Below are positions 8,578 through 30,588 of a stretch of DNA of 34,527 bases, one piece after another. The DNA comes from Promethearchaeota archaeon (GTDB lineage: Archaea; Asgardarchaeota; Lokiarchaeia; Sigyniarchaeales; SOKP01): the NCBI GenBank assembly GCA_048940645.1, contig JBHLOI010000038.1, positions 1-34,527 on the forward strand, given 5' to 3'. The first letter of the stretch is position 1. The number at the start of each line of letters is the position of its first letter. Under the pieces are notes generated by a model. The model was not told the origin of the DNA and did not search any database. It worked only from the letters and a program-made list of their open reading frames with translations. The translations under genes were made by a program, and so were the position numbers.

Positions 8578-8678
8578 CATTCCAATAATTCTTTATTAAT
8601 GAATTAACAAATCCAATACGGTCTCTAAAAGTGGTTTTAATGCGGGGTCTGTTACCTTTAGCAATGAGGAAAATAACA

Positions 8679-11600: not shown

Positions 11601-14504
11601 GTATCCGCATATGATCCTAATCTTCAAGACATTTGGTATCGAGTAGGAACTACTAATGTTTTCTTATCAAATAATTTAGAAGAATTGCTTAACGTAACTA
11701 TCTGGAATAGTTTATCTGAAGGAGCTTTTTATATAGAAATTTTTGCTAATGATACTTTTGGTCATTTGAATGATACTTATACATTATTGTTATATAAAGA
11801 TACTATTGCTCCTCAATTAACTATTAATTCTCCTAACAATAATACATATTTTGATTCTCCCCCAGATATTCATGTAATTGCTACTGATTTAGCTCTTGAT
11901 AAAATTTGGTATAAAATTGGTACAACTGAGATAGAAATACCTAATAACTCTCCGACTCCTTTAAATAGTTCATTATGGAACAGTTTAGCTCAAGGAGCAT
12001 TTATTGTAGAAATATTTGCTAATGATACATTAAATCAAATCAATAATTCTTATTCATTAATGTTATATAAAGATACCTTACCACCAATTATTATCATCAA
12101 CTCACCTATTAATAGAACAAGTTGGAATTTAGCACCTCCCATTAATGTATCTGCTATTGATCCAAACTTAGACGACATCTGGTATCGAGTTGGAGGATAT
12201 CAAGACTTATTACTAAATAATACTGCAGAATTATTAGATAATGGCGTTTGGAACTCTTTAGGGAATGGCCCTTTTGAGATCTACATTTGGGCTATTGATG
12301 ATTTTAATCATATCAGTAATAATTATGTTTTAACTTTATATAAAGATACTCAAGCTCCTGAAATAATAATAAATACGCCAGCAGCTAGTAGTAATTGGAA
12401 TGAGCCCCCAACTCTTAATGTAATGGCTATAGATCCAAGTTTAGATACAATTTGGTATCAAGTTGGATCAGATAATTTTACTTTAACCAATAACACCGAT
12501 CAAATGTTAGATCTTGATCTTTGGAATGGTTTATCTGAAGGGGCTTTTGTTATACAGTTCTTTGCTAATGATACTTTTGGATATCTTAATGATCTAGTAC
12601 AAATTACCTTGTATAAAGATACTACTCTTCCGAACGTAAATCCATATTTGCCCTACAATAATACTTATTACAGCGTAGCTCCAGATATTCTCATATATGT
12701 TAATGACTTGAATTTTGATTCAGTTTGGTATACTAGTGGAGCAACTAAAGAGTTACTTGAGGAGGGAGTATCAGAACCATTAGATGCTACAATATGGAAT
12801 AGTCTTCCCCAAGGAGAGTTCATAATAAACATTTTCGCTAATGATACAGCGGGTAATGTTAATAATACATACTTCTTCGTGTTATATAAGGATACATTAC
12901 CTCCTAACGTCTATGTTACTTCGCCTCAGTCGAACTCTTATTGGAGTAATTACCCCATTATCCATGTAATTGCTTATGACCCTAATTTTAATGTGATTCG
13001 ATATAAACTAGGCGATATGACGCCACAAGTTATTCCTAATGATACTGATTATGAAGTTCCATGGACTGTTTGGTTGCCTATACCAGATGGACCTGTTTTA
13101 TTGGAAATTTTTGCCGAAGATATTTTTGGTCAGATTAATGACTCTATTAAATTAACTATTTATAAAGATACTTCTCCGCCAGTTATAGATGTCTATTCTC
13201 CTCAACATAATGATCTTTTTGGCGTAATAGCTCCGAATTATGATATTTCTGTAATTGATGGTAATTTAGAAAAGACTTGGTACCAATTGATTGGAACATC
13301 CATTAATTCATCCTATTATTTCATTTCTGTTTTTTCTGGTATGATTAATCAGTCTGCATGGGATTTATTTGCAGATGGTACCTTAACTATCCGATTTTAT
13401 GCTAATGATTCATTAAATAATATAAACTATTTTGATAGAATAGTAAGAAAAAATACTATTGACCCAATTATCAATATTGATGATCCTCATGATTATGAAT
13501 TATTTGGTCAACAATCTCCTAACATTACAATTTATAAAAGCGGTATAGAAATTGATACTACCTGGTATACTTTAAATTATCTTAATCATACTTTTTCAGG
13601 ATTGAATATTCAACTAGATCAAAATGCCTGGAGTGCGATTGGTAATGGTACTGTTTTAATTAAGTTCTATATTAATGATAGTGCTGGAAATTTGGGTTAT
13701 GATGAAATTATTCTTCGAAAAGATATCATTATTCCCATTGTTTATATCAATTTACCCTATAATAATACCATGTGTAGAAGAGCTCCCTATATAAATATAA
13801 CCGTGGTTGATCCAAATTTAGATAAAATTTGGTATAGAACTAATGGTGAAAGCAGATATTTATTAAACAGCATTTCGCAAGCACTTGATAGTACAATTTG
13901 GGATAATTTACCCGAAGGAATCTTTACTATTGAAATCTATGCAAACGATACTGTTAGCAACTTAAATGATCTATATAAATTATATTTAGAGAAAGATTCC
14001 ATTCTTCCTAATATTACTATAATATCTCCTTCTGAGAATCAAAATGTTGGAAGAGATTCACCATTTTTTGAAATTACAGTCTTTGATATTCACTTAGATT
14101 CTACCTGGTACATTATTGAGGATATAAACGAAAAAGTGCTATTTACAGGCGAATATGGAAAAATAGATCAATCTATGTGGCAAAGTTTATGGGATAATTT
14201 AACTCACGGTGATAAAATGACAATAATTTTTTATGCTAATGACACAGTTGGGAACATTGGGCAAACAAGAGTAAATCTTGTAAAATATACTGGAGAACCT
14301 TTTGATTTCTGGAAAATACTTACTGGACCGATGGGATTTTATCTTACAATCATTGGTTTAGGTGCAATGATTCCTGCCTCTACTGTTCTTGCTAAAACAA
14401 AATATTACAAAACCTTAGATAAAAATAAAAAAAGCAAGGTTAGAAAATTTTTAACTCTTACATTTTTCACTTTAGCCTTGATAGTCTTATATTACGTTTT
14501 ATAG
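8679..14504 (+). CDS. Giant membrane-anchored surface glycoprotein A with tandem Ig-like repeats (ORF track starts at GTG 8631; ATG 8679 preferred)
   Basis: Basic N-region plus a hydrophobic signal/TM; 2 + 12 copies of a ~90-aa KDT..P...INSP.N...DPNLD.IWY...IWNSL.EG.F....ANDT.GN repeat; 4 copies of a 101-aa SSWTN repeat; two C-terminal TM helices. Confidence 0.9.
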   Translation: MKKYWCKLQSKKRLKRISKLLAYFILCFILIFFSNSNLIIYYMSSIKGDNYYDQDFNPKTSDPPVISILSPDNYTLFGKIAPNYSLTITEGIGNYSWYEFLETGERSTPKELEGTLNEDVNDTFDQNLWDNLDNGTVTIRFYVNDSLGDVGQVDAIVRIDIIDPTISVISPTGGFFNSTSPEYVIEISEPNLDKIWYTLNTDNIKYFFQDNGTIDQNAWNSLSEGPVDINFFANDSVANENSASVQVTKDTVDPDAPISLSANPSSWTNINNFNVSWTNPSDMSGIVGAYYKLDAAPTSDIDGIYIEGSNIETITGIIVNSNGTHPIYVWLRDAVGNIDYNNYATTQLQLDGEDPNAPNGLIATPSSWTNIDNFDLSWTNPSDISGIVGAYYKLDSAPTSDTDGSYVAGLDIVSISGISVTTDGTHTVYVWLNDTAGNIDYNNYASTQLFLDTVNPSSAIGLSVTPSSWTNINSFNLSWTNPADTSGIIGAYYKLDSTPTSDTDGTYVAGINIESILDITTGTDGTHTAYVWLVDAAGNINYTTYVTAQFYLDTSDPLIPSGLIAIPSYWTNINNFNVSWTNPSDMSGIVGAYYKLDTAPTSDTDGIYIEGSNIEKITGITVSSNGTHTIYVWLRDTAGNINYNNYNITLLYLDAIKPTIDGLQEGDDMWRNSGGTTYNVDFIDPSPSSSLDYAQYKITSAQGQGGIILVDWTYIFTDHAEPIYTLDWTIDFDACQEGTNWVSVRVFDDAGNFEVNNDTFYVKKDTISPALLINSPQDGSKWNTQPEIHLSATDLNLDSVWYTVGGTKVLLTNGVPEPLNSTIWSSLSGEQEFTIYFYANDTVGNVNNTYSHTLYKDVLAPRMTINRPFNLTYYDDRPPINVTVIDPNFASLTYTVVGYSPANIWLNNNTEVQLDQNIWNQLPQGEFKLTFSAFDDLGNGNELSLTLYKDTIAPKVIINSPDNLTYWNSAPNINVSAYDPNLQDIWYRVGTTNVFLSNNLEELLNVTIWNSLSEGAFYIEIFANDTFGHLNDTYTLLLYKDTIAPQLTINSPNNNTYFDSPPDIHVIATDLALDKIWYKIGTTEIEIPNNSPTPLNSSLWNSLAQGAFIVEIFANDTLNQINNSYSLMLYKDTLPPIIIINSPINRTSWNLAPPINVSAIDPNLDDIWYRVGGYQDLLLNNTAELLDNGVWNSLGNGPFEIYIWAIDDFNHISNNYVLTLYKDTQAPEIIINTPAASSNWNEPPTLNVMAIDPSLDTIWYQVGSDNFTLTNNTDQMLDLDLWNGLSEGAFVIQFFANDTFGYLNDLVQITLYKDTTLPNVNPYLPYNNTYYSVAPDILIYVNDLNFDSVWYTSGATKELLEEGVSEPLDATIWNSLPQGEFIINIFANDTAGNVNNTYFFVLYKDTLPPNVYVTSPQSNSYWSNYPIIHVIAYDPNFNVIRYKLGDMTPQVIPNDTDYEVPWTVWLPIPDGPVLLEIFAEDIFGQINDSIKLTIYKDTSPPVIDVYSPQHNDLFGVIAPNYDISVIDGNLEKTWYQLIGTSINSSYYFISVFSGMINQSAWDLFADGTLTIRFYANDSLNNINYFDRIVRKNTIDPIINIDDPHDYELFGQQSPNITIYKSGIEIDTTWYTLNYLNHTFSGLNIQLDQNAWSAIGNGTVLIKFYINDSAGNLGYDEIILRKDIIIPIVYINLPYNNTMCRRAPYINITVVDPNLDKIWYRTNGESRYLLNSISQALDSTIWDNLPEGIFTIEIYANDTVSNLNDLYKLYLEKDSILPNITIISPSENQNVGRDSPFFEITVFDIHLDSTWYIIEDINEKVLFTGEYGKIDQSMWQSLWDNLTHGDKMTIIFYANDTVGNIGQTRVNLVKYTGEPFDFWKILTGPMGFYLTIIGLGAMIPASTVLAKTKYYKTLDKNKKSKVRKFLTLTFFTLALIVLYYVL
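9426..10637 (+). repeat. 4 x 303-bp in-frame tandem repeat (SSWTN / GAYYKLD / YVWL.D..GN, FN3/Ig-like)
   Basis: Exact 303-bp period from GAT 9426 to GAT 10638; units 1 and 4 are most alike (WTNINNFNVSWTNPSDMSGIVGAYYKLD). Confidence 0.95.
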
Positions 14505-14587: not shown

Positions 14588-17500
14588 TTAATAATTATAT
14601 TTAGACTTTCCTTTTCTTCTCCTTCTTAGAATAAATACCGTCGCAATTACTGCAACTCCGACTGCGCTTCCACCAATTATTATCCACATAGTTAAGTCTG
14701 GTCCAGGTTCTACTGTCGTATCTATTACAATATCTTTATTAGCACTAAGAGAACCTGGTGCTCCTGGTGTTGGTAGTGTTAATTCAGCATCGTTAAGTAC
14801 TGCATCTCGAATCGTCCCTCCATTCAGAGATAAAGCATTAATGGAGATATATTCAAGATCAGATGAATTATGGCCTGAAGCTACCGTATAGGTAAATGTT
14901 AATACAAGAAGTCCACTTCCACTACTATAATCTACTACAGCGTCTATAGAACCTGTTTCTAAAGTAAGTTGAGGAGTACCTGTGACATATACTGCTTCTG
15001 AGAAGGCGATTGTTATATAGATTACAGCGCCTGTTCCATAGGTTCCATCTGCATTAGTGGCACTAACATTTGTGATTGTTGGTCCCGTAGTATCGATGAT
15101 GATATCCTTGTTAAAACTAAGAGATCCTGAGGCTCCCGGTATTGGAAGTTCCAGATCTGCGTCATTTCCTACTACGTCTTTAATTATTCCACTTAAAGCA
15201 GTTTCATTAAAATACGCTAGATCAGAAGAAGTATGACCTGAAGCTACAGTATAAGTAAAAGTAAGAGTATCTGTTTCATTACCGCTAGTATAATAAATTA
15301 TTGTGTCAGTAATGCCTGTTTCTAGAATTAATTGGGGAAGGCCTGTTATTAATACAGCTTCAGAGAATGTTATTGTTATATAGATTACAGCACCTATTCC
15401 ATAGGTTCCATCTGCATTAGTGGAGCTTAAACTAATAACTGAAGGATTTACTATATCTAGATATAATTCTGTTGTAGCATAATTAGAATAGTCAATATTT
15501 CCAACTGCATCTTCTAACCAGATATAAACTGTATGTATTCCGTCAGAACCTACACTAATTCCGATAATTGATTCTATATCAGCACCAGCTACATAGGTTC
15601 CATCTGTATCTGAGGTAGGGGCAGAATCCAATTTATAATAGGCACCGACAATCCCAGAAAGATCTGAAGGATTGGTCCAGGTAAGATCAAAGTCATCGAT
15701 ATTTGTCCATGAAGATGGATCAGCGGAAAGTCCTGTGGGTGCAGCTGGATTTTCTTGATCCAAGTATAATAGTGTTGTATCATAATTATTATAATCAATA
15801 TTTCCTGCTGTATCATTTAACCATACGTAGACAGTGTGAGTTCCGTCGGTTGATACAGAAATACCAGAGATGGAGATACCACCTGATACATAGGTGCCAT
15901 CCGTATCTGAAGTAGGAGCAGAATCCAATTTATAGTAGGCACCGATAATACCTGAAGTGTCGACAGGATTGGTCCAAGAAAGATCAAAACTATCGGTATT
16001 TGTCCACGAAGATGGGCTGGCCATAAGCCCCGTAGGTGCGCCTGGATCAACACTATCCAAATATAGCAGGATTATAGCATAGTTATTGTAATCAATATTT
16101 CCAACAGCATCTCTCAACCATACATAGATGGTATGGGTTCCATCTGTCGAAACAGAAATACCTGAAATTGATTCTATATCAGCACCAGCTACATAGGTTC
16201 CATCTGTATCTGAGGTAGGGGCAGAATCCAATTTATAATAGGCACCGACAATCCCAGAAAGATCTGAAGGATTGGTCCAGGTAAGATCAAAGTCATCGAT
16301 ATTTGTCCAGGAAGATGGATCAGCTGAAAGGCCGATAGGATTAGTAGGATCTTCTTGATCCAGATACAATTGTGTTATGGCATCATTATTGTAGTTAATA
16401 TTTCCTGCACCATCTCTCAACCATACATAGACAGTATGAGTTCCATCGGTTGATACAGAAATACCAGAAATTGATGTACCACCTGCAACATAATCTCCAT
16501 CAGTATCGAAAGTTGGAGCCGCATCCAATTTATAATATGCTCCAACAATTCCTGAGGTATCAGCAGGATTGGTCCAGGAAAGATCAAAACTATCGGTATT
16601 TGTCCACGAAGATGGGCTTGCTGTAAGCCCAGTAGGTGAACCAGGATCTACAGTCTCTAAATATAACACTGTTGTGGCATCATTAGTGTAATCAATATTT
16701 CCTGCAGCATCTCTCAACCATACATAGACAGTATGAGTCCCGTCCGTTAATACAGATATACCCGAAATTGATTCTATATCAGCACCAGCTACATAGGTTC
16801 CATCTGTATCTGAGGTAGGGGCAGAATCCAATTTATAATAGGCACCGACAATCCCAGAAAGATCTGAAGGATTGGTCCAGGTAAGATCAAAGTCATCGAT
16901 ATTTGTCCATGAAGATGGATCAGCGGATAGACTAATTGGAGCTGCAGGATCTACAGCATCTACAATGAGATTTTTGTTTGAACCAAGGGATCCTGGAGTT
17001 CCTGGTGCAGGAAGAGTTAAATCGGCATTTAAGCCTTCTGGATCTCTAATTGTTCCTTTTAAGGGATTTATAGTGATATAATCAAGATCAGATGACTCAT
17101 GTCCTATAGCTACAGTATAGGTAAATGTTAAAGTATTTGTTTCGTTCCCACTACTATAATCTACCACAGCGTCTGAAGAACCTGTTTCTAGAGTAATATT
17201 AGGAGTACCTGTAACATAGACGATTTCTGAGAAAGTAATTTCTATATCAATAGTACCACCTGCACCATATATTTGATTAGGATCTGGAGAAGTAACTTGA
17301 GTTACAGTTGGAGTTTTTGCATCGACGAAGATATCCTTGTTAGCACCGAGAGAATTAGCAGCTCCAGGACTTGGAAGTGTTAGATCAGCATCATTTCCAA
17401 CGATACCTCGGATTGTTCCACCATTTAAACTTAGGGCTGTAGTTGAGATATAATCAAGGTCAGTAGAATAATGATCTAATTCAACTGTATAATTAAATGA

Positions 17501-19192
17501 TAAAACGTTTGTTCCATCACCACTCGTGTAATCAACTATTGCATCAGTGTCACCTGTTTCCAGAGTAAGTTGAGGCGTACCTGTAACTTCAACCGTATCA
17601 GAGAATATAACTGTGATTTCAATTGTCTCTCCTAACCTATAGGTACCATCAGGATTTGTGGAAGTGACATTACTTATTGTTAGTGGAGGTATAACATAAT
17701 TATTTATAAAAATGTTTCCTACACTATTTTCTACGATGGCATATTCAGTATTAGCAATAAAAGAATTTTCTGAAATAAGATTAGAATCACTATAATTTAA
17801 ACAAATTCCGTATGTATTTTCTTGTAGTAAATTTTCCAAAATATCATTATTGTCGCTAGAATACAAAGAAATGCCATAGTAATTGTTCGAACAGTTATTC
17901 TCTATTAATGTTGCAGCATCAACAACAGAAACTAATTTAATTCCCGCATCCATAGAAGCTGAACCTGAATTAATGAGTCTACAATTTCTAATCTTAAAGA
18001 ATTCATCAGGAGCCGTACTATTGCCAATTAGGATACAGCTACCTACACTTCCACCATCAATTACCACATCTTCAATAACATAAGGATCACTTGAACTTCC
18101 TGAACCACTGCACCATGCTCTAGTAGATGCCCATATCCAACTTTTACTTCCACTTGTTGTACTTCCGTCAATATGAATTTTTGATCCATCATGCAATGGG
18201 TTTCCATAGATAGGTAAATGATCTGTCGGATCGTATCCTGAAGTTCCTGTAATAATATAAGTATAATTAGATTCTCCAATTCCATTACCATCTAAATCCA
18301 TACCCGTATAATTGTCCCAGTAATTACCAATTTTAGTGTTATTCCAACTATTTTCAGCGAATATTCCGGGAGTATCTTCAGCATGAATACTATTATTAAT
18401 AAAGTAATTCTTATACATAAGATTATTACCACTGGTACCAACCACTCTTATACCTATTCCAGAATTATTCTTTACTAAGTTCTCATAGATTTCATTATAA
18501 CTACTTGTAGTTTGAAGTAAAATTCCATTATCATCATTAAAGGATAGCTCATTCTTAAAAATATAATTATTACTACTACTACGAAAAGCTATCCCATGCC
18601 AAGTATTATTGGTCGCAATATTTTTAAAGAGATAATTTTCGTCACAACCAGTATCTAAATAAATCCCACTATAACTATTCTCATTTAAAATATTTTCATT
18701 TACTGTATTGTTTGTACTATCAAGCATGTATATTCCCGCCTCATTAGCATTACAATAATTTTCTCTAATTGTTCCATTGTTAGTGGATATTAATTTAATT
18801 CCCGCATTATTTCCACTTAATTGGGAATTATAGGTAGTACAATTTCTAATTATGAAATATTTAATTGAATTAGCAATTAAAATACCACTACCAGTACCTT
18901 CTGCATCAATAGTCACATTTTCTATAATATACGGATCAGCCCACGTTCCAGAACCACTACACCAATCTTGACTTGCTGCCCAAGTCCAATTTTTAGCTCC
19001 AACTCCGGTTTCCGTGTCGTTAATATAAATCTCATTAAGTATCCAATAGCCTGAGGCTTTAGAGTCAAATTCATTATCTGTCCCTTCTATATTTCCCACT
19101 AAATTTTCAGGAGTCATTGGCTCTGTTAAAGAAATCAAAATTAAAAAGCATAGAAGTGTTGCAATAATCGATATTTTTTCCATTTTTTTCAT
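14588..19192 (-). CDS. Giant surface glycoprotein B: two NosD/pectin-lyase-like beta-helix regions, four GTPQLTLETG Ig-like repeats, five SSWTN repeats, C-terminal TM anchor with basic tail
   Basis: Signal peptide; Asn-rich GI.L..S.NN.I..N beta-helix repeats preceded by W.WA....WCSGSG...DPY.IE; C-terminus WIIIGGSAVGVAVIATVFILRRRRKGK. Confidence 0.9.
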   Translation of the reverse strand: MKKMEKISIIATLLCFLILISLTEPMTPENLVGNIEGTDNEFDSKASGYWILNEIYINDTETGVGAKNWTWAASQDWCSGSGTWADPYIIENVTIDAEGTGSGILIANSIKYFIIRNCTTYNSQLSGNNAGIKLISTNNGTIRENYCNANEAGIYMLDSTNNTVNENILNENSYSGIYLDTGCDENYLFKNIATNNTWHGIAFRSSSNNYIFKNELSFNDDNGILLQTTSSYNEIYENLVKNNSGIGIRVVGTSGNNLMYKNYFINNSIHAEDTPGIFAENSWNNTKIGNYWDNYTGMDLDGNGIGESNYTYIITGTSGYDPTDHLPIYGNPLHDGSKIHIDGSTTSGSKSWIWASTRAWCSGSGSSSDPYVIEDVVIDGGSVGSCILIGNSTAPDEFFKIRNCRLINSGSASMDAGIKLVSVVDAATLIENNCSNNYYGISLYSSDNNDILENLLQENTYGICLNYSDSNLISENSFIANTEYAIVENSVGNIFINNYVIPPLTISNVTSTNPDGTYRLGETIEITVIFSDTVEVTGTPQLTLETGDTDAIVDYTSGDGTNVLSFNYTVELDHYSTDLDYISTTALSLNGGTIRGIVGNDADLTLPSPGAANSLGANKDIFVDAKTPTVTQVTSPDPNQIYGAGGTIDIEITFSEIVYVTGTPNITLETGSSDAVVDYSSGNETNTLTFTYTVAIGHESSDLDYITINPLKGTIRDPEGLNADLTLPAPGTPGSLGSNKNLIVDAVDPAAPISLSADPSSWTNIDDFDLTWTNPSDLSGIVGAYYKLDSAPTSDTDGTYVAGADIESISGISVLTDGTHTVYVWLRDAAGNIDYTNDATTVLYLETVDPGSPTGLTASPSSWTNTDSFDLSWTNPADTSGIVGAYYKLDAAPTFDTDGDYVAGGTSISGISVSTDGTHTVYVWLRDGAGNINYNNDAITQLYLDQEDPTNPIGLSADPSSWTNIDDFDLTWTNPSDLSGIVGAYYKLDSAPTSDTDGTYVAGADIESISGISVSTDGTHTIYVWLRDAVGNIDYNNYAIILLYLDSVDPGAPTGLMASPSSWTNTDSFDLSWTNPVDTSGIIGAYYKLDSAPTSDTDGTYVSGGISISGISVSTDGTHTVYVWLNDTAGNIDYNNYDTTLLYLDQENPAAPTGLSADPSSWTNIDDFDLTWTNPSDLSGIVGAYYKLDSAPTSDTDGTYVAGADIESIIGISVGSDGIHTVYIWLEDAVGNIDYSNYATTELYLDIVNPSVISLSSTNADGTYGIGAVIYITITFSEAVLITGLPQLILETGITDTIIYYTSGNETDTLTFTYTVASGHTSSDLAYFNETALSGIIKDVVGNDADLELPIPGASGSLSFNKDIIIDTTGPTITNVSATNADGTYGTGAVIYITIAFSEAVYVTGTPQLTLETGSIDAVVDYSSGSGLLVLTFTYTVASGHNSSDLEYISINALSLNGGTIRDAVLNDAELTLPTPGAPGSLSANKDIVIDTTVEPGPDLTMWIIIGGSAVGVAVIATVFILRRRRKGKSKYNY
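15458..16960 (-). repeat. 5 in-frame SSWTN repeats alternating 303/297 bp (600-bp higher-order period)
   Basis: A 159-bp block recurs at 15566-15724, 16166-16324 and 16766-16924 with a single mismatch (position 16310). Confidence 0.95.
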
Positions 19193-20433: not shown

Positions 20434-20482
20434 AATGCATTCATGCATTTTTAATTCCCCCCTCTTTTTTTTTCTTTTTTTT
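20434..20482 (+). terminator. Hairpin plus oligo-T tract, probable terminator
   Basis: AATGCAT-TC-ATGCATT inverted repeat followed by long T runs (20465-20482). Confidence 0.55.
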
Positions 20483-20698
20483 TAAATTATTTTAATATTT
20501 TAGATCAATTTTTAAAATTCTGTATTTATTATTCTAAATCCTAAATCTTGATCATTTTTCGATCTGTAAAGAATTATATAATAATAAATTCGTTTATTAA
20601 ATATATCTTCAAATGAATTAATTTTATGATTAAACTTAAAAAAATAAGTTGAATTATTATTATTGCATAAAAGAAATTCAGTATAAAGATGAGGTATT

Positions 20699-22453
20699 GT
20701 GGAACCTAATTTACAAAATATTGATAAAATTGGAAAAACGATTGCAGATCGATTAATCTCAGCGGGAATTGACACTGTTGAAAAACTTGCTAACATTGAA
20801 ATTGAAAAGTTATTAAAAGTAAAAGGTATTGGTAGATCAACAGCAAATAAATATAAAGAGTATGCTAAAAAACTTCTTAAAGAATTAAATAAAAATAAAA
20901 CTGCAGATTTAAAGTATATTTCTTCTAAACATAATAAATTAAAATCAGAAAAAGAAACTATATCAGTTAAAAATGCTCAATTAAACACTATAGAAAAGAA
21001 AAGTGAAGTTCATATGACGAAAAATATTAATTTGGAAAAAAGTGCTCCTAATACGAATTTAAGACATAAAGAGGAGATGAAATCAAAACAAAGAAATAGC
21101 TTATCCAAAACCAGAAGGGCTAAAAAAAAGGTCACGAAAGATTCTACTAAAAAAAAGGAGGCTAAAATAGGTTATGCTTATAAATTTTTTAAAGAAGACA
21201 CCATCCAAAGAATTAGGTTCTTGCACTTTAGGATTAAAAATATTGAAGAATTGATAAAGAAATTATCCTATAAAGAGATTCCTCCAAATGTAAGGGATTT
21301 ATTTTATGAGTACATAGTTATATTAAATAAAAATTATAAAACTAGGAATCATAATTTAATTCTTCGAGAATTAGAACTAACTCAGAAATATTTTGACCCG
21401 CTCGAGAATAAGGAAATAGGTATTTATGATATAATGTTTGAATGTGCTCGTGCATTTTGGGTAATGGCAAAAACTTTTAATCTACTTTCAGAAAGTTATG
21501 AGAGTAAAGAAGAATGGGAATATGCTGTAGCAGCTATGTTTCAATGTAGTAAAGCATATAAAACAGCTTCATATTTTAGCGCAGCTGCCATCCATCAAGA
21601 AATAATTGGGGGTAGTTTAAACGCGCAAAATTTAGAATTCAAGGCAGAAGAATCACGTATTCTCGCTCAAAGTCTGGCATCAGTTAATGAGGAAAATAAA
21701 GAAAATTATTTCTTAGCATCTAATTTTTATAGTGGTTTAAGTTCTCTGTCAAAAAGATTATTTTTTTCAGAATATTTCGATGAAAGAAAGAAGTTGCAAC
21801 TAAAAGCTCAATATCATTACGATTTGGGGAAAGCTTGTAATTTATTTGCTCAAGGAATATCAGGCTCATTAGGCCTTAAACCTAAAAAAAGTGGAGAGGA
21901 AAAAGAAAATAGAAAGTATCTTCAAAAGGCTGTTTATTACTATTCAGAGGCAGAAAAAATCTGGGAATTTGTGCTTAATAACTTGAAAGATATTACAAAG
22001 GAAGAAAAAGATGATTTAAAAAGAAATTTATCTATTGTTAATGAAAATATAATGGAAATTGATGAAGAAATTGTGGATTATAACTATTTAAAGGATATCC
22101 CAGTTCCTAAGCCAATTATAGCTGTTCCAGAAAATATTCCCATAGTATTACCGAAATCAATAAATTATCTAACTAAATTACCACAAAAGGAACCTGATGT
22201 TGGATTATTAAGAAAGTTTAAAAATATTAAATTTGAAGACAAATATCCAATGAATAAAAGAAGAGAGGTTCTAAATAAGAAGGCAACCGCAGGGAGAATC
22301 ATAAAAGAGTTAAAAGTATTGTTTGAAAATGATGAAATAGAAGTTGACAAATATACAGAACTTTTAGAAAAATATACTTTAAAATATAAAATGTTAGATA
22401 GCATTCTCTATAAATTTGACAATGTTCCAGAAGACAATAAATCTAAAAAGTAA
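20699..22453 (+). CDS. Helix-hairpin-helix domain protein with a Lys-rich linker and a C-terminal alpha-solenoid resembling a BRO1 domain
   Basis: N-terminal LQNIDKIGKTIADRLISAGIDTVEKLA...LLKVKGIGRSTA is a tandem HhH; the downstream helical region follows the BRO1 motif order (see findings); GAGGT SD before the GTG start. Confidence 0.75.
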   Translation: MEPNLQNIDKIGKTIADRLISAGIDTVEKLANIEIEKLLKVKGIGRSTANKYKEYAKKLLKELNKNKTADLKYISSKHNKLKSEKETISVKNAQLNTIEKKSEVHMTKNINLEKSAPNTNLRHKEEMKSKQRNSLSKTRRAKKKVTKDSTKKKEAKIGYAYKFFKEDTIQRIRFLHFRIKNIEELIKKLSYKEIPPNVRDLFYEYIVILNKNYKTRNHNLILRELELTQKYFDPLENKEIGIYDIMFECARAFWVMAKTFNLLSESYESKEEWEYAVAAMFQCSKAYKTASYFSAAAIHQEIIGGSLNAQNLEFKAEESRILAQSLASVNEENKENYFLASNFYSGLSSLSKRLFFSEYFDERKKLQLKAQYHYDLGKACNLFAQGISGSLGLKPKKSGEEKENRKYLQKAVYYYSEAEKIWEFVLNNLKDITKEEKDDLKRNLSIVNENIMEIDEEIVDYNYLKDIPVPKPIIAVPENIPIVLPKSINYLTKLPQKEPDVGLLRKFKNIKFEDKYPMNKRREVLNKKATAGRIIKELKVLFENDEIEVDKYTELLEKYTLKYKMLDSILYKFDNVPEDNKSKK

Positions 22454-22565: not shown

Positions 22566-23114
22566 ATGGGTAAGGGTACAAAATCTATTGGGAGGGTGTT
22601 ACGTAATTCCTTATTTTATATAATTCTTCTAGTAATTTTATATGTCTTCTTTCTAAGTAAAGAAATAGGGCTTCTCTTATCAGCGATATTTTTAACAGTC
22701 TTTATTCTTACTTATATCCCATCTCTTTCTTCTAAAAGAAGATTGATTAAAGTTTTGAATCAATACGACAAAATTGAAGATAAATTTATAGCAAAGAAAT
22801 TAGATCGTTCAGTATCTAAAATTAGATCCCAAATGCATAATCTTTCTAAACGTCAAAAACATAAGAAATGGTTAATTGTTTTTCTAAATAAGCGTTATAT
22901 TTACTATAGTCAAGATACGATTGAGAAATTTTTGAATTTGTATGAGAATGGATTTCATGAAAAGAAAATTTTAGAAACCATGAAAAAGAAATCCGAATTA
23001 AAAACAAGAGCAGAAATTAAAGCTATTGAAGATGCTCTTACTAATAATAAAAGACTTATAGATAATCATAAAAAAGTTACAGGAAAAAAACCTATCACTG
23101 CAGTTGAGAGTTAA
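22566..23114 (+). CDS. Membrane protein with two N-terminal TM helices and a basic cytoplasmic helix-turn-helix/winged-helix-like region
   Basis: Hydrophobic residues ~16-52, then IEDKFIAKKLDRSVSKIRSQMHNL (HTH-like) followed by short beta strands WLIVF..RYIYY. Confidence 0.65.
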   Translation: MGKGTKSIGRVLRNSLFYIILLVILYVFFLSKEIGLLLSAIFLTVFILTYIPSLSSKRRLIKVLNQYDKIEDKFIAKKLDRSVSKIRSQMHNLSKRQKHKKWLIVFLNKRYIYYSQDTIEKFLNLYENGFHEKKILETMKKKSELKTRAEIKAIEDALTNNKRLIDNHKKVTGKKPITAVES

Positions 23115-23720: not shown

Positions 23721-24869
23721 TTATTTTTTTTTCTTATTTAGTTCATGGAATTTTATCAATAATTTCTTTTGTTCTTCTGAGATATCTTTTGGAATTTCAA
23801 TTCTAACGATGACATACTGATCTCCTTTCGCTTTTCCTCTTAAATAAGGTACTCCACGATTTTTAATTCTAAATTCAGTTCCATGTTGAGTTCCCGCAGG
23901 AATGCTTAACTCTTTTTCAGTTAATTTATTACTTTTATAATCTAGGGTGAGAACTTTTATTTTTCCCCCTAAAATAGCAGTTACTAAATCAATATCCATC
24001 GGTGTATAAAGATCATTACCACGTCTTATAAAATTCTCGTTTTCAATAATTCTAATTCCTAAATAAAGATCACCAGGGATTGCATTTACTGAGGGAACAT
24101 GACCAGCACCCTGTACTTTAAGATGAACTCCATCCTCTACTCCTGGCGGAATATTCACATGAATTGTTTTAGTTTCTGGTACAACCTTTTTTCCATTACA
24201 AACTTTACATTTTTTTTCAAAAGTTTTTCCTGTACCCATACATACATTACATCCTGAAGTTCGAATAATTGTACTGTATCCCTGTCTTGTCATTCTTTGA
24301 ATTTGTCCTGTTCCGTCACAATTGTCGCATTTCTTAACACTTGCAGGATCCTCTGCTCCTGTTCCTTCACACTCATCACAAGGAGTATATCTTTGAATTA
24401 CAATATCTTTCTTAACACCAAACATAGCCTCTTCAAATGTAATCTCAACAAAATCTTCAATATCTTGGCCAACCTCTCTTTGGGGTCTTGCTCTAGGTCT
24501 TGCTCTCGATCCAAAAAAACTCCCAAATCCAAAATCATCATCACCAAATATGCTTCCTCCTCCAAATATAGATCTTAATATTTCATTTATTCCAGGGATA
24601 CCACCCCTAAAAAAATCACTCATATCAACATGTACTCCACTGAAGCCAAATCGATCATAATTGCTTCTTTTTTCTGGATCGCTTAAAACTTCATAAGCTT
24701 CTTGCAACTCAATAAATTTCTCCTTTGCTTTAGGATCTGTTTTGTTCACGTCTGGATGAAGCTTTCTAGCTAATTTACGATATGCTAATTTTACTTGATC
24801 AGTTGTAGCATCCTTCGACACTCCCAATACTTCGTAATAATCCCGCTTTTTAGAGGACACTTTACTCAC
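23721..24869 (-). CDS. dnaJ: Chaperone DnaJ (class A Hsp40)
   Basis: J-domain [10 protein letters not shown]...HPD; G/F-rich region; four CxxCxGxG-type zinc repeats; C-terminal substrate-binding domain. Confidence 0.98.
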
Positions 24870-25023
24870 TTATTTTAAATCTATGTTCTATATATTATTA
24901 CTGTCTTATGAGCCAGTTTATTAAGTAAAATATATTCTGAAATTTATTTTTTTAGGTACTTGATTATTCAAAAATAAAGACATACCACTATTAATTTTTT
25001 AAGAGCCACCTAAAAAATTGATT

Positions 25024-26529
25024 TCAATTTGGTATTTTGATAACATTTCGATTTAATTCCTTATTAAATCTAATAGGAAATATTTTCCCAACAAGTTCTG
25101 TTTTTTCTATTTCATTTAATTTACCTTTTGATGCCTGAATATAGGCAAGTGTACGATTCCCTTTGTTAAGGCGTCCTAATGCAATCCCATTTATCGGTTC
25201 TCCCTGTCTATTAAATATTAATGTATATCCTTCCACTTTAAATTGTCCATATGCAATTTCAACTGGAAAAGGTAAAGATTTCTTAAGAATCTGCTTTTGA
25301 ATTTTGTTCTCTTTTTCTTTATTCCAAGATATATAAGAATGTCTATTACCATAAATTCCAAATGATTGCTTGGTGTTATAACCTCCATTTGCAATTACCA
25401 TTATTTTAAGAGCTGGATTTTTTCGAATCAGCTCAATAGATGTTATTATAGCATGCAAAGAATAATTACTCCAAGGACCTCCGAAATAAGCTAATCCTCC
25501 GGTAACAGTCAAATCTCGTTTATCATCAGCATTTAAACCAATTTCATTCATAATAATTTCAACAATAGAAGGAAAACAACTATAGATATCAAATTTATTA
25601 ATATCCTTCAATTTAAGTCCCGCTTGTTGCAATGCTAATTTAACACCCTCTCTAGACGCTGGAGAATTTGTTAAAGATGGTCGTTGTGTTATACTAAATA
25701 CGTTTTGAAGGTCTGATCCTCCCATATGATAGACCCAGTTTTTTTTATTAATATTTAGTCGTTCTGCAATTGATTCACTTGTAATTACTAAGCTTCCTGC
25801 TTGATCAGTAAAAACATTAGAACACATTCGTTTAGTATAAGGGTGACAAATATTACGATTTTCATGAATAGGTGTTACTATATCGTCTGCTGAAAAATTT
25901 TGCTTAATCCATGCATAAGGGTTTCTGGAAGCAATATCAGCGAAATGTTCGAAAAGACTTCCTATATAATGATTATGTTCTATTATATTTTTATTTGATT
26001 TCGCGCGTAGAGCTGTCTCAAAAATTGCATAACTATAAGCTGGAGTAATCAATTCATATTTGTTTTCAAATTCATTAGTACCATGCCAAATCTTGCCTTC
26101 CATATATGAAGGTTTTTCTTCTTCCGGCCAGTTTAATTTAATTTTTCCTTTTTTAGCTCGAAGGGCGGAATAAGAAGCTTCAGCACCAGTAATTAATATT
26201 CCTTTACGCTCTCCTGATGAGATTTTCCTCACTGCTCGATTAACTAACATTTGAGGAGTGTTTCCTCCATCTGATAAATAAATTTTTTGAGTAGGTTTTA
26301 AGCCGACGATTTCACTAAGCAATCCTGGCGCATCCTTATATGACCAACTCCGAATATTTACCATATAAATTGTATCAATGTAGCTTTTTATTTCATCTGT
26401 AGCTGCTTCGGAAAAAGCTTCTTCAGAAGTTTTTACCATAAGATTTAATGGATCAAGGGGATCATTCAAATTTTTTGACTGTGTAAATTGAGATGCCCCA
26501 ACAATTACCGGAACAAGATTGGTTTTCAT
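25024..26529 (-). CDS. Thiolase-like protein (TLP1-type acetyl-CoA acetyltransferase family) with an extra C-terminal domain
   Basis: PVIVGASQ, GGNTPQMLVN, ITGAEA, HPYTKRM, DQAGS, FDIYSCFP, LTVTGGLAYFGGPWSNYS, ANGG..TKQSFGIY; C-terminal VEGYT...G.P.....GRL..G.RTLA. Confidence 0.88.
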   Translation of the reverse strand: MKTNLVPVIVGASQFTQSKNLNDPLDPLNLMVKTSEEAFSEAATDEIKSYIDTIYMVNIRSWSYKDAPGLLSEIVGLKPTQKIYLSDGGNTPQMLVNRAVRKISSGERKGILITGAEASYSALRAKKGKIKLNWPEEEKPSYMEGKIWHGTNEFENKYELITPAYSYAIFETALRAKSNKNIIEHNHYIGSLFEHFADIASRNPYAWIKQNFSADDIVTPIHENRNICHPYTKRMCSNVFTDQAGSLVITSESIAERLNINKKNWVYHMGGSDLQNVFSITQRPSLTNSPASREGVKLALQQAGLKLKDINKFDIYSCFPSIVEIIMNEIGLNADDKRDLTVTGGLAYFGGPWSNYSLHAIITSIELIRKNPALKIMVIANGGYNTKQSFGIYGNRHSYISWNKEKENKIQKQILKKSLPFPVEIAYGQFKVEGYTLIFNRQGEPINGIALGRLNKGNRTLAYIQASKGKLNEIEKTELVGKIFPIRFNKELNRNVIKIPN

Positions 26530-26739
26530 TTAAAATAAATTCTCCATTAAATGATATTTTTAATAAATTAATTAAGGAATAATTAAGATTATGCCTAATA
26601 ACCAAAATTATAAAGAACCTAAACTAAAACCTGACATTAGTGTATACTAGTAAATATTTAGAAATTGAAATATTTTTATAAACCACAAACAAATATTAAT
26701 ATACTATATATAAAAAAACTTTAAGATAGTGTATAAACA

Positions 26740-26970
26740 ATGGCATGGACTCCACCAAGTAAATTTATTGTAGTTATAACCTTTCTTTTATGGATCTTCG
26801 GACTATTTATCTTACTCGACATGTCTGTTATATTTTGGAATGATCTTATATTACCCTCAATTCATCTTTTTGGTTTAGCGAATTTCCAATCATGGCTTCT
26901 GATTGCTATGATAGTATTCTTTTTCTCTTGGATTCTATTTTTCCTCGCTATTAAATTAAAGGGTTTGTAA
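26740..26970 (+). CDS. Small two-TM membrane protein, function unknown
   Basis: ATG start, MAWTPPSK leader, two hydrophobic helices, sits in an otherwise empty AT-rich interval. Confidence 0.75.
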   Translation: MAWTPPSKFIVVITFLLWIFGLFILLDMSVIFWNDLILPSIHLFGLANFQSWLLIAMIVFFFSWILFFLAIKLKGL

Positions 26971-27133
26971 ATCTATAAAATAAAATTTCTTTATTTTTTT
27001 TTAGGATTTAATCAAAAATGAATATTATTTGGTAATTGTAAAAAAGATTTTAAAAAGAACCTTTAAATTTCTAAATAATTAATAATTATTGGCAACACAA
27101 AAAGAAATCCTAATAAAATTAAAAAGTAAATAA

Positions 27134-27385
27134 ATGAAAAAAAAACAAAAAAACGCACAATGTGAAAAGTGCGGACGGCTTATTCACCCCGCAAGGTCGG
27201 CTCTCCAAAGTGTTGGTGTCATTTTTGCAGAGATACCCGAATATTGTCCTCATTGTGGGGCAAAGCTCTCTGATATAAAACGAGAACAAGTAGATAAATA
27301 TACAGATTACCTTTGCATTCTTAAATGCATTCCTGTAGTAGTATTCATTGTTATTATTATAACTATAATTATTATTGCTCGCTAA
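27134..27385 (+). CDS. Zinc-ribbon protein with a C-terminal TM tail anchor
   Basis: CEKCG and CPHCG pairs, followed by the hydrophobic C-terminus IPVVVFIVIIITIIIIAR. Confidence 0.8.
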   Translation: MKKKQKNAQCEKCGRLIHPARSALQSVGVIFAEIPEYCPHCGAKLSDIKREQVDKYTDYLCILKCIPVVVFIVIIITIIIIAR

Positions 27386-27445
27386 GACGGTTTTGAAGGT
27401 CTTGATAATCTAGTAAATTTAGAATAATTAGATATTAGCCATCTT
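27386..27445 (+). pseudogene. Leucine-rich-repeat coding relic
   Basis: Translates as DGFEGLDNLVNLE*LDISHL, matching the SDS22-like LRR consensus (I)EGL..L..L..LDLS.N, with an internal TAA. Confidence 0.5.
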
Positions 27446-27484
27446 AATTAGATATTAGCCATCTTAATTAGATATTAGCCATCT
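27425..27484. repeat. Perfect tandem repeat, 3 x 20 bp (TAATTAGATATTAGCCATCT)
   Basis: Three exact adjacent copies starting at 27425, 27445 and 27465, with no spacers. Confidence 0.97.
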
Positions 27485-27569
27485 TTCTATATTTAATCAA
27501 AAAAAATTATAAAAAAAGAATGAAATAAAAGAAAAATTCATTTACTTTATAGTAAAAGTGACTTGAAAT

Positions 27570-29564
27570 TTAATCTTCGTCCCAATCGACATCTACGACT
27601 TTCTTCTTCTTATCTTCTTCTTCCTTTTTATATGTGGCACCACCTTCTCCAGTACCACCCTCTCCTGGAGATGCTCCACCCATGCCACCTGGTGGAACGT
27701 CACCCATACCACTTGCAGCTCGCTGAGCTTGTTCAGCAGCTTGTTGATATACTTGGTCTTGAGCCTGCGAAGCATAAATTCTCTGAGAAAATCCATACAT
27801 AGATTTTTGTAAATTTTCAATACCCATTTTAATTCTATTTACATCGTCTGTTTTTATATCTTCCTCTAAAGATTTGATTGATGCTTCTATTTCATTTTTT
27901 TCATTATCTTGTATCTTGTCTTTATTGTCTTCCATTAATTTCCTTGTTTGATAAATCATCGAATCAGCATTATTTTTAGCTTCAATCAATTCACGCACCT
28001 TTTTATCTTGTTCCTCAAATTTTTCAGCATCTCTGACTTTTTGTTGGATTTCCTCTTCACTTAAACCTTTAGCGCCTGTAACTGTAATACCTGTTTCTTT
28101 TCCAGTTCCTAAGTCTTTAGCAGTAACATGGACTATGCCATCAGCATCAATAGAGAATTTTACCTCTATTTGAGGCATGCCACGAGGAGCCGGAGGTATG
28201 CCAGTTAGATGAAACATTCCTAATGAGATATTATCTTTAGCCATTGCTCTTTCTCCTTGCAAGACGTTGATGGTAACAGCTGGTTGATTATCCGCTGCTG
28301 TACTAAAGGTTTGCTTTTTCTCAGTTGGAATAGTTGTATTTCTTTCTATTAATTTTGTAAAAACACCCCCTAAAGTTTCTACGCCTAGTGATAATGGAGT
28401 AACATCTAATAATAGTAGATCTTCTACATCTCCCGCAATTATTCCTCCTTGAATTGCTGCTCCAATCGCTACACACTCCATAGGATCGACTGAATGCTCT
28501 GGTTCTTTTTTAAAGAACTTTTTAAATCGTTCCTGAACAGAGGGCATTCTTGTTGGACCACCAACTAAAATGACTTTATCCACATTATTTGGAGAGATTT
28601 TAGCATCTGATACAGCTCTTTGCATAATAGGATCTAATCTTCTCAAGGTTGGTTCAATTAATTGTTCTAATTTGGCTCTAGTAAGTTCCATTTCTAAATG
28701 AACGGGATTCCCTTCTTTTTGTGTAATATAAGGTAAATTTATTTGCGTGGATAATGTTGTAGATAATTCTATTTTTGCTTTTTCAGCAGCATCCTTAATT
28801 CTAATCATAGCTTTATTATCTCCTTTTAGGTCAATCCCCTCTTTCTTCTTAAAGTCCTCAGCAACCCAGTCAATTATGGCGTTATCCATGTCAGTTCCAC
28901 CAAGTTGAGTATCTCCAGCTGTAGAAAGGACTTCTACAACCCCTTCACCATATTCCATCAAAGTTATATCAAATGTACCTCCGCCCAAATCTAAAACACA
29001 TATTTTATAAAGCTTATCTTTTGTATCTTTATCAAGACCGTAAGCAAGACATGCTGCTGTTGGTTCATTAATCATTCGCACGACTTCTAATCCTGCAATT
29101 TCACCAGCATTTTTCGTAGCTGTTCTTTGGGCATCATTAAAGTAAGCTGGTACAGTAATAACCGCCTTTTTTACGTCTTCACCAAGATATGCTGCTGCAT
29201 CATTTTTTATTTTTGTAAGTATCATTGCACTAATTTCTTCAGGCGAAAACTCTTTCCACTCTTTTCCTACTTTAATTTTAGCTTTATATGATAAACCCAT
29301 CTTACGTTTAATCGCAGTTACAGTACCATCAGGATTTGAAACTGCCTGACGACGAGCAGGTTCCCCTACTATTTTACGCCCATTCTCATCAAACGCCACA
29401 TATGATGGAAAGGCTTTCCCTCCTAATGTACGACCTTCTGCAGCTGGAATAATTTCAGGTTTTCCAGTACCACCTAAGACAGCACATGCGCTATTTGAAG
29501 TTCCTAGGTCGATTCCGATTACTCTCTCTTTCTTTTTCGGGCTTTCTGTTTTTTCTTCACTCAT
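27570..29564 (-). CDS. dnaK: Chaperone DnaK (Hsp70), archaeal/Gram-positive type lacking the ~24-aa N-terminal insert
   Basis: [76 protein letters not shown]. Confidence 0.99.
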
Positions 29565-29772
29565 AATAAAACTTCACTTCAATCAGATTATTAATCAATA
29601 TAATTCAATTATATTATAATATTTTTATTCTACATTATTTCCTATTAAAATAATAATTAATGGTAAAATTTAAAATTTTTATGATATAGAGATCATTATA
29701 AAAATGGATAAATAAACTGGATATTATAAGTTATTAAAACTAAATCTTTATGAAATATAAAGGGATAGGAAT

Positions 29773-30588
29773 ATGACTCGGAAAAATAAAGAAAAGGAAG
29801 AGAAAGAGAAAGAATCTCAAGTAAACAACAAAACTAAATCAGAAGATTCTCAGCTATCGACAGATAAAGTAGAAGACGAATCAATAGAAGAGGGACAAAC
29901 TAAAATTAAACAGATTGAAGGTGAAGAACCTCAAAAACTAGAATATTTCTCTAAAGATGATTTACTCGGAAAAGTTCAAAATTTAGAAGAAAACCTTAAA
30001 GTGGCAGAAGAAAAATTATCCCAATTTCAAAATCAAGCAAATGAGTGGAAAAATAAGTTTATGCACCTACAAGCGGAATTCGAAAACGCTCAAAAAAGAT
30101 GGGATAAATATCGTCAAAATTTAAGTATTCAGTATACTGCTTCAACATTAAAAACCTTCTTACCATTATATGATTCCTTTAAAAAAGCCCTTGAAAATGA
30201 AAATCCTCAGAATGATATATTAAAAGGTTTTTATGACCAATTTATGAATATCTTAAAATCTTATAAAGCGGAACCAATTAAAGTAAACATCAACGATCCT
30301 TTTGACTATAATTATCATGAAGCCTTAAGTACTGTTGAAAGAGACGATGTACCTAGCAATACCATTATAGATATTGTCCAGGATGGATGGAAACAGGATA
30401 AAGAGGTAATCCGATATGCGAAAGTAATAATCTCTCGTGAACCTAAACCACCAGAACCAGAGCCAGAGCTAGAAGAAAAAGATAAAAAGGAAGCAATCGA
30501 AGAAGAAGAAAAAGTGGAAGAAAAAGAGAAACCAGAAAAACAAGAAGAAGATTCTAAAGGAAAGAAAGGAGATGAATTAACCGATTGA
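29773..30588 (+). CDS. grpE: Nucleotide exchange factor GrpE with acidic N- and C-terminal extensions
   Basis: LQAEFEN..KR, FLPLYDSF.KA, PFDYNYHEA, IVQDGW....VIRYAKV; divergent from dnaK. Confidence 0.95.
   Translation: MTRKNKEKEEKEKESQVNNKTKSEDSQLSTDKVEDESIEEGQTKIKQIEGEEPQKLEYFSKDDLLGKVQNLEENLKVAEEKLSQFQNQANEWKNKFMHLQAEFENAQKRWDKYRQNLSIQYTASTLKTFLPLYDSFKKALENENPQNDILKGFYDQFMNILKSYKAEPIKVNINDPFDYNYHEALSTVERDDVPSNTIIDIVQDGWKQDKEVIRYAKVIISREPKPPEPEPELEEKDKKEAIEEEEKVEEKEKPEKQEEDSKGKKGDELTD

Follow-up and report, generated by a model that had tools for sequence, protein, structure and literature searches.

We report a protein from an archaeon that very probably contains a Bro1 domain, a divergent homologue of the domain known from yeast Bro1p, ALIX, HD-PTP and BROX. 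It is encoded on contig JBHLOI010000038.1 of assembly GCA_048940645.1 (Lokiarchaeia; Sigyniarchaeales; SOKP01), and the whole stretch of 34,527 nt that we analysed is called the window here. The gene (P0001) is the open reading frame (ORF) 20699-22453. Its product combines an N-terminal helix-hairpin-helix (HhH) module, a lysine-rich linker and a large helical domain, and we refer to it as the HhH-Bro1 protein. An earlier note on this DNA had proposed this layout, which is borne out by Pfam, by composition and by an AlphaFold2 (AF2) model. The gene model is backed by seven orthologues of 575-586 aa with 83-90% identity. The composition of the gene is unremarkable, with a GC content of 26-38% across the whole window. 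An in-frame TAA apparent in four genomes of one genus is the true stop codon of the gene. Among listed sequencing runs, the DNA occurs in sediment-metagenome DNA runs, some of which may be its source, and in no RNA run.

We assign the Bro1 fold because of the structural evidence. After aligning 34 homologues (alignment A1), we built an AF2 model of residues 160-584. The model has a mean predicted local distance difference test score (pLDDT) of 83.9 and a predicted template modelling score of 0.75. It runs from N-terminal helices through a beta-hairpin, seven long helices, a proline-rich strap and a poorly modelled linker to a C-terminal helical hairpin. The part up to and including the strap is the domain in question. 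The earlier note had placed a helical domain of about 320 aa at about 21200-22170, close to the limits that we find (Table 1).

A Foldseek search against the PDB gave 21 matches at E<=1e-3, and all of them are Bro1 domains. The best is yeast Bro1p (1zb1, E 2.4e-6), followed by HD-PTP, BROX and ALIX. After these comes a designed repeat protein (E 7.6e-3) as the first match of another kind. When the Foldseek matches were aligned with VIA-align, 16 Bro1 entries reached Z-scores of 19.9-21.9, with 277-296 residues aligned at a root mean square deviation (rmsd) of 4.2-5.0 Å. The best non-Bro1 fold among these matches was SRP68-RBD with a Z-score of 11.8. The alignment is co-linear and covers about 85-90% of the domain: model residues 1-327 correspond to residues ~22 to 348/361 of the Bro1 chains, and the strap is aligned as far as Bro1 residues ~347-361. 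A VIA-align comparison with 48,161 representative chains, which did not depend on Foldseek, returned five Bro1 representatives at Z 20.2-21.4 and then NatC Naa35 at 11.6.

The ESM Atlas gives a similar order. The nearest cluster is the family's own, an archaeal cluster of 410 aa with a template modelling score (TM-score) of 0.69, automatically named 'putative BRO1 domain-containing protein'. Four eukaryotic PF03097 clusters follow at TM-scores of 0.55-0.59, and then bacterial tetratricopeptide repeat (TPR) clusters at about 0.4. The BRO1-like domain suggested in the earlier note thus has a resemblance at the fold level far beyond chance (21 of 21 Foldseek matches; VIA-align Z-scores of about 21 compared to about 11.7). 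The opposite outcome, set beforehand as one that would speak against the claim, was a list of generic TPR or alpha-solenoid matches only and no beta element. Instead, Bro1 domains top the structure searches. The Bro1 fold is an elongated solenoid of helices, ~330-370 residues long, that has a beta element near its N-terminus and ends in an extended strap, and both the beta-hairpin and the strap are present in the model.

At the sequence level there are several points against the Bro1 assignment. Scanned against Pfam at E<=10, neither the full-length window protein nor pieces of it matched PF03097. The family profiles A1 and A2, and P0147 alone, matched no Bro1 chain among the PDB sequences; their matches were HhH proteins, one designed TPR and one chance match. 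Scores of about 33 bits against PF03097 are unspecific, and a canonical TPR protein of another Asgard family reaches 32.4 bits. Among the 301 genomes of the phylum that we sampled, PF03097 exceeds its cut-off in none.

What sequence support there is for Bro1 identity is weak, and the link appears to be transitive, through distant members of the family. An exhaustive phmmer search yielded 51 cluster representatives, including three distant members of ~400 aa (P0146, P0147 and P0151) at 24-27% identity. The core of the window protein finds P0147 by phmmer at E 7.4e-20. In turn, residues 9-182 of P0147 match positions 33-208 of the PF03097 hidden Markov model (HMM) at E 3.2e-8 (33.3 bits, below the cut-off of 35.1). 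The register of this match is roughly in line with the structural alignment, and a precomputed database annotation of P0147 lists PF03097. A word-index search from P0147 for the distant branch recovered P0146 alone. Because a TPR protein scores almost as high, at 32.4 bits, we regard the PF03097 scores as supportive, not decisive.

Could the helical domain be a TPR-like solenoid that merely converged on the shape of Bro1? An identity of only 10-15% to solved Bro1 domains, the lack of a profile match above the curated threshold and the similar sub-threshold PF03097 scores of TPR proteins are in line with convergence. However, the best TPR-type match lies about 10 Z units below the Bro1 domains, and the alignment is co-linear over the full length of the domain, including the beta-hairpin and a C-terminal strap that is not a repeat. 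Furthermore, the Pfam scan reported no canonical TPR family for the window protein. We therefore hold convergence to be highly improbable.

Conservation within the family falls on the motif blocks that the earlier note had pointed out (FEC.R, E..R..AQS and the P.PEN strap). These blocks contain the family-invariant residues E89, R92, E158, R161, Q165, P318, E319 and N320 (core numbering). In the strap, the invariant columns are I308, P313, P318, E319, N320, P326 and K327. The most conserved helix spans core residues 178-196, in which G187, L188, S189 and R194 are invariant. [quoted passage not shown] If a linear offset is assumed, the conserved helix would fall near this patch.

The N-terminal module is a tandem HhH, as the earlier note had read it: two HhH motifs match PF14520 well above its cut-off (Table 1). 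No other significant family besides PF14520 was reported by the Pfam scan of the window protein. Searched against PDB sequences, the family profile matches the HhH domains of the NusA C-terminus and of the RadA and Rad51 N-termini. Other PDB sequence matches of the module are the NusA C-terminal acidic repeats, the C-terminal domain (CTD) of RNA polymerase alpha and the HhH repeats of topoisomerase V. The HhH domains of RadA and Rad51 and the topoisomerase V repeats bind DNA, and the modules of NusA and of the RNA polymerase alpha CTD serve protein contacts. The expected lysine-rich low-complexity linker is also present, between the HhH module and the core (composition in Table 1). Among the fused homologues, the number of HhH2 modules is one or two, and the linker varies from 15 to 249 aa and is net positive in 22 of 23.

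From these sequence features, binding of nucleic acid by the HhH module and the linker, most likely of DNA, comes out slightly better than even. The basic linker taken by itself is only suggestive of DNA binding. One point weighs against it: HhH modules can mediate protein-protein contacts, and NusA C-terminal domains are among the best PDB sequence matches. If this were the function here, the HhH module would be a protein-protein interaction module and the whole protein a purely protein-based adaptor. The NusA and RNA polymerase alpha matches named above favour such an adaptor. Nevertheless, the RadA and Rad51 N-termini and topoisomerase V match as well, the linker is strongly basic throughout the fused clade, and in one long homologue the precomputed annotation labels the linker as histone H1-like HC2. 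We consider a purely protein-based adaptor improbable.

To define the range of the family, we searched the 301 sampled genomes with the core profile A2. The family is present in 67 of the 68 genomes from the GTDB family to which the window belongs, and in none of the seven that represent its sister family within the order. It is remotely matched in four of the five genomes of one other family (Borrarchaeum). In one further family a single weak match (E 6.8e-6) is confined to the hairpin region, and there is none elsewhere in the sample. The range is hence narrow, essentially one GTDB family and almost none of the remaining phylum sample, which counts against an ESCRT function. ESCRT-III itself is reported across the Asgard lineages. 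The family therefore cannot belong to the ESCRT machinery of Asgard archaea in general, and its range warns against assigning the HhH-Bro1 protein to the core of that machinery.

The source genome holds two copies of the family: the HhH-Bro1 gene and a paralogue of 413 aa that has the Bro1 fold and lacks the HhH module. A stand-alone copy of ~410 aa occurs in nearly every genome of the GTDB family, and about half of the genomes also carry one or two long, HhH-fused copies. A tree built from the core places the fused copies in one clade with long branches, with a support of 100 in the Shimodaira-Hasegawa-like approximate likelihood ratio test (SH-aLRT). The stand-alone copies are very alike and slowly evolving. 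Since the fused copies form one clade, the fusion arose once, in this GTDB family, from a conserved stand-alone Bro1-like gene. The longer fused forms, HhH-bearing proteins of up to 819 aa, contain no further domains.

A few observations on relatives are added here. The stand-alone paralogue is flanked by a convergent 157-aa gene without an assigned function at 29 of 30 loci and by a divergent ATP-grasp gene at 26 of 30. The Borrarchaeum matches include two proteins of 510 aa (L062:2840-4372 and L063:2804-4339), in which the family profile covers residues ~57-355 (E~1e-20); against PF03097 they reach E 5e-4 and 2e-3. They have an extra C-terminal region of ~155 aa without a Pfam family and may represent a separate Asgard Bro1-like lineage. 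We set aside the weak PF03097 matches in other Asgard families: they are either canonical TPR proteins or short matches at the N-terminus, and none is related to A2. Two proteins of 508-514 aa from another Asgard family, f24 (L066:1192-2736 and L067:556-2082), match positions 8-104 of the PF03097 HMM at E 6e-4 to 6e-3 and are unrelated to A2. They may be divergent Bro1-like proteins or chance matches.

The antiparallel helical hairpin at the C-terminus is kept in both classes of paralogues and in the distant members. Its fold matches the ESCRT-I core chains 2p22_A, 2caz_D, 2f66_A and 6vme_C with Z-scores of 8.5-9.0 and an rmsd of 1.5-2.4 Å. Other hairpins score equally well: the cytoplasmic domain of MK-D1 OST1 (9.1), CdvA (8.6), the CHMP4B hairpin (8.4), flagellins and integrase coiled coils. 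Unrelated hairpins are thus matched at Z 8.4-9.1 in the VIA-align comparison with representative chains. Pfam scans of ten C-terminal pieces gave a single Vps23_core match, at E 0.1 in P0147, and nothing consistent; the hairpin of one homologue has a weak CdvA coiled-coil match (E 0.0067). An ESCRT-I core or steadiness-box reading (PF09454, Vps23_core) has no specific support, as the ESCRT-I chains tie with unrelated hairpins. We treat the element as a generic hairpin, probably for oligomerisation or for binding a partner.

Directly downstream of the HhH-Bro1 gene lies a gene for a protein with two transmembrane (TM) helices and a winged helix (Table 1). The AF2 model of this protein (pLDDT 80.7) has winged-helix topology, with strands (E) and helices (H) in the order E69-71, H72-78, H83-95, E103-107, E110-114. 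VIA-align matches it to the tandem winged helices of SelB at Z 8.5-10.1 over ~110 residues, and then to many winged helix-turn-helix proteins. All Foldseek matches are proteins of the same kind, none of them at E<=1e-3. A homologue of this 2-TM partner follows the HhH-Bro1 gene directly, on the same strand and at a distance of -4 to +116 nt, in 17 of 18 genomes; other neighbours are retained in only four to eight of the 18. Beside the stand-alone paralogue the partner was found at none of 31 loci. A functional pairing of the HhH-Bro1 protein with the 2-TM winged-helix protein is therefore likely. One detail speaks against it: in the window the two genes are separated by 112 nt, with an AT-rich, TATA-like stretch. 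Co-transcription in the window is therefore plausible, not certain.

In four loci from other genomes of the same genus (L050, L051, L053 and L054) there are two HhH-Bro1 genes, and within the fused clade the two fall into separate sub-clades. The two genes flank the 2-TM winged-helix gene in L051, L053 and L054. In L050 they are adjacent, and the 2-TM gene comes after the second copy.

What might such a pair of proteins do? In the mechanism that we propose, the HhH module and the basic linker would hold nucleic acid, most likely DNA. The 2-TM partner would anchor the complex at the membrane, with its winged helix in the cytoplasm. The Bro1 domain would dock a helical peptide. By analogy with all characterised Bro1 domains, this peptide would be an ESCRT-III subunit's C-terminal helix. 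The HhH-Bro1 protein and its partner would jointly mark a contact of DNA and membrane for ESCRT-III. This mechanism taken as a whole has nearly an even chance of being right.

Candidate ESCRT-III partners are encoded in the same genome. Contig C52 carries a CHMP4-7-type ESCRT-III protein (P0172, ESCRT-IIIB), which matches PDB chain 9fn1_U at E 2e-89. Contig C60 carries a CHMP1-3-type protein (P0173, ESCRT-IIIA), whose gene adjoins those of Vps4, Vps25 and Vps22/36. Co-folding of the Bro1 core (A2, 1-340) with the C-terminal 67 residues of P0172 scored 0.00; the run had no controls and counts neither way. By analogy with other Bro1 domains, binding of ESCRT-III is possible, and we would put it below an even chance. 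As a separate observation, the gene next to that of P0172, on the opposite strand, encodes a protein of 718 aa (L013:10442-12598, minus strand) that matches Vps23_core weakly over residues 637-686 (E 0.005) and may be an ESCRT-I-like component.

A further result weighs against an ESCRT function: there is no ESCRT gene near either paralogue, neither in the window nor in the surroundings of the stand-alone copy. Alternatively, the protein would be a scaffold of the Bro1 fold without any engagement of ESCRT-III, acting with its partner in another process at DNA and membrane. Examples of such a process are the anchoring or segregation of chromosomes, the transfer of DNA, or the control of a winged-helix regulator sequestered at the membrane. 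The restriction of the family to one GTDB family and the missing ESCRT synteny fit such a scaffold. The most strongly conserved link, to a winged-helix membrane protein, fits it too. ESCRT-III is not the only ligand of eukaryotic Bro1 domains either: HD-PTP with STAM2, endofin and SARA peptides is among the Foldseek matches. On the other hand, the characterised Bro1 proteins among the matches all bind ESCRT-III tails (CHMP4A/B and CHMP5: 3c3o, 3um3, 3um1, 5mk2), and the genome encodes both ESCRT-III types and Vps4. A non-ESCRT scaffold stays a serious alternative because of the narrow range and the missing ESCRT synteny, although we find it somewhat doubtful.

In its most far-reaching form, our proposal makes the pair a prokaryotic tether of DNA, membrane and ESCRT-III, functionally parallel to LEM2-CHMP7 or CdvA. 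It would position scission relative to the chromosome at division or load DNA into ESCRT vesicles. If this is true, the Bro1/ALIX branch predates eukaryotes and is not a eukaryotic invention. We regard this extended form as unlikely on present evidence. Overall the interpretation is partly supported: its structural half (HhH module, basic linker and Bro1 fold) is supported, and its functional half is what we infer.

How does the protein compare to known Bro1 proteins? With the eukaryotic Bro1 domains (1ZB1; ALIX 2OEW/3C3O; HD-PTP 3RAU/5MK0; BROX 3R9M/3UM3) it shares the fold over ~277-296 residues, including beta-hairpin and strap. BROX is the closest in kind: it is little more than a Bro1 domain, as is the stand-alone paralogue of ~410 aa, and its TM-scores in Foldseek are the highest (0.50-0.56). 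Unlike the eukaryotic proteins, the window protein is archaeal, diverges to the low identity given above and has no PF03097 match. It adds the N-terminal HhH module and the basic linker, and the hairpin takes the place of a V domain, a proline-rich domain, a PTP domain or a CAAX motif. Its gene is paired with that of a 2-TM winged-helix protein, and ESCRT-III binding is a predicted role only. To our knowledge, eukaryotes have no HhH-Bro1 architecture.

Similar kinds of parts occur in the sealing of the nuclear envelope, and the functional logic may be alike. In LEM2, a chromatin-tethering motif and a low-complexity region are joined to two TM helices and to a winged helix that activates an ESCRT-III-type protein (10.1101/577460). 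In the window such parts are split over two adjacent genes, with an ESCRT-III-docking-type domain among them, and the likeness is an analogy only. The HhH module is not a LEM or HeH motif, and a Bro1 domain stands in place of a winged helix that directly activates CHMP7. Among the structural matches listed for the partner there are no LEM2 or MAN1 chains. We know of no nucleus in these archaea. The DNA-binding-type fusion and the pairing with a membrane winged-helix protein suggest a use that eukaryotes achieve with other parts (LEM2-CHMP7).

An archaeal DNA binder, CdvA, recruits the ESCRT-III-like CdvB (PMC3132758). There is therefore an archaeal precedent for a DNA-associated ESCRT-III recruiter. 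The fold of CdvA is unrelated to that of the window protein, and again the analogy is functional only. CdvA is characterised by a PRC-barrel, a coiled-coil and an E3B peptide; for the window protein, Pfam reported neither a CdvA nor a PRC match at E<=10.

Bro1 homologues have been claimed for Asgard archaea before (Eme et al. 2023; PMC10307638). The 'Bro1' rows listed in the part of the supplement available to us are proteins of 75-150 aa from Heimdall-, Njord- and Thorarchaeial bins, tagged PF18097 (PMC10307638). PF18097 is Vta1_C, a model of 38 positions, and not the BRO1 domain PF03097. The rows listed there thus differ from the Lokiarchaeial Bro1-fold family of ~410 aa. A survey from 2024 could not identify Bro1/ALIX in Asgard archaea and counts it among the few ESCRT components still listed as missing (PMC10936438). 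In our literature search we found no paper that describes a Lokiarchaeial Bro1 domain or an HhH-Bro1 family. A genuine Lokiarchaeial Bro1-fold family would place the origin of this ESCRT-III adaptor module before eukaryogenesis, or it would reveal an ancient transfer. The two proteins are a cloneable pair for probing how Asgard archaea coordinate chromosome, membrane and ESCRT-III.

Table 1. Coordinates and properties of the HhH-Bro1 gene, its parts, its partner and its paralogue (window positions unless a contig is given).
Feature	Position	Strand	Properties and basis
HhH-Bro1 gene P0001	20699..22453	+	584 aa, GTG start; ORF list and translation
Putative ribosome-binding site GAGGT	20691..20695	+	3 nt before the GTG; read from sequence
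(HhH)2 domain, residues 5-51	20711..20851	+	PF14520 HHH_5, E 3.5e-11, 43.8 bits, cut-off 27
Basic low-complexity linker, residues ~63-160	20885..21178	+	98 aa, 29% K+R, 10% D+E, net charge +18
Predicted Bro1-fold domain, residues 160-486 (model 1-327, ~327 aa)	21176..22156	+	AF2 model and structure searches
Beta-hairpin in the Bro1-fold domain (model strands 71-74, 79-82)	21386..21421	+	DSSP on the model; inside the range aligned to Bro1 chains
Proline-rich C-terminal strap (model 296-326)	22061..22153	+	Non-helical in the model; invariant P..P....PEN.....PK
C-terminal antiparallel helical hairpin, residues 520-574 (model helices 361-384, 390-415)	22256..22420	+	AF2 model
Partner gene	22566..23114	+	182 aa; TM helices 5-30 and 32-65; winged helix 69-114; three further helices
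Stand-alone paralogue	C69:30545-31819 (= L011:9543-10784)	-	413 aa; A2 family, without HhH

The HhH-Bro1 gene is preceded by an AT-rich intergenic region of 315 nt. At 20440-20480 this region contains a pyrimidine-rich tract, C7 followed by T-runs. The other genes around it in the window encode two giant surface proteins, a 246-aa protein without an assigned function, an NTPase, DnaJ, a thiolase-like protein, DnaK and GrpE. One predicted surface protein (14588-19192, minus strand; 1534 aa) has NosD/beta-helix repeats, repeated modules of ~95 aa and, at its C-terminus, a TM anchor with a basic tail behind it. The other (8631-14504, plus strand; 1957 aa) is a predicted giant protein with Big_13 Ig-like domains.

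The submitter labels of metagenome-assembled genomes from the same genus or family (L075, L076, L079 and L081) name Odin-, Hod-, Hermod- and Thor-archaeota and are unreliable as taxonomy. Downstream of the partner gene, a chaperone cluster at 23721-30588 comprises DnaJ, the thiolase-like protein of 501 aa and DnaK/Hsp70 on the minus strand and GrpE on the plus strand. DnaJ recurs near the HhH-Bro1 gene in seven of 18 related genomes.

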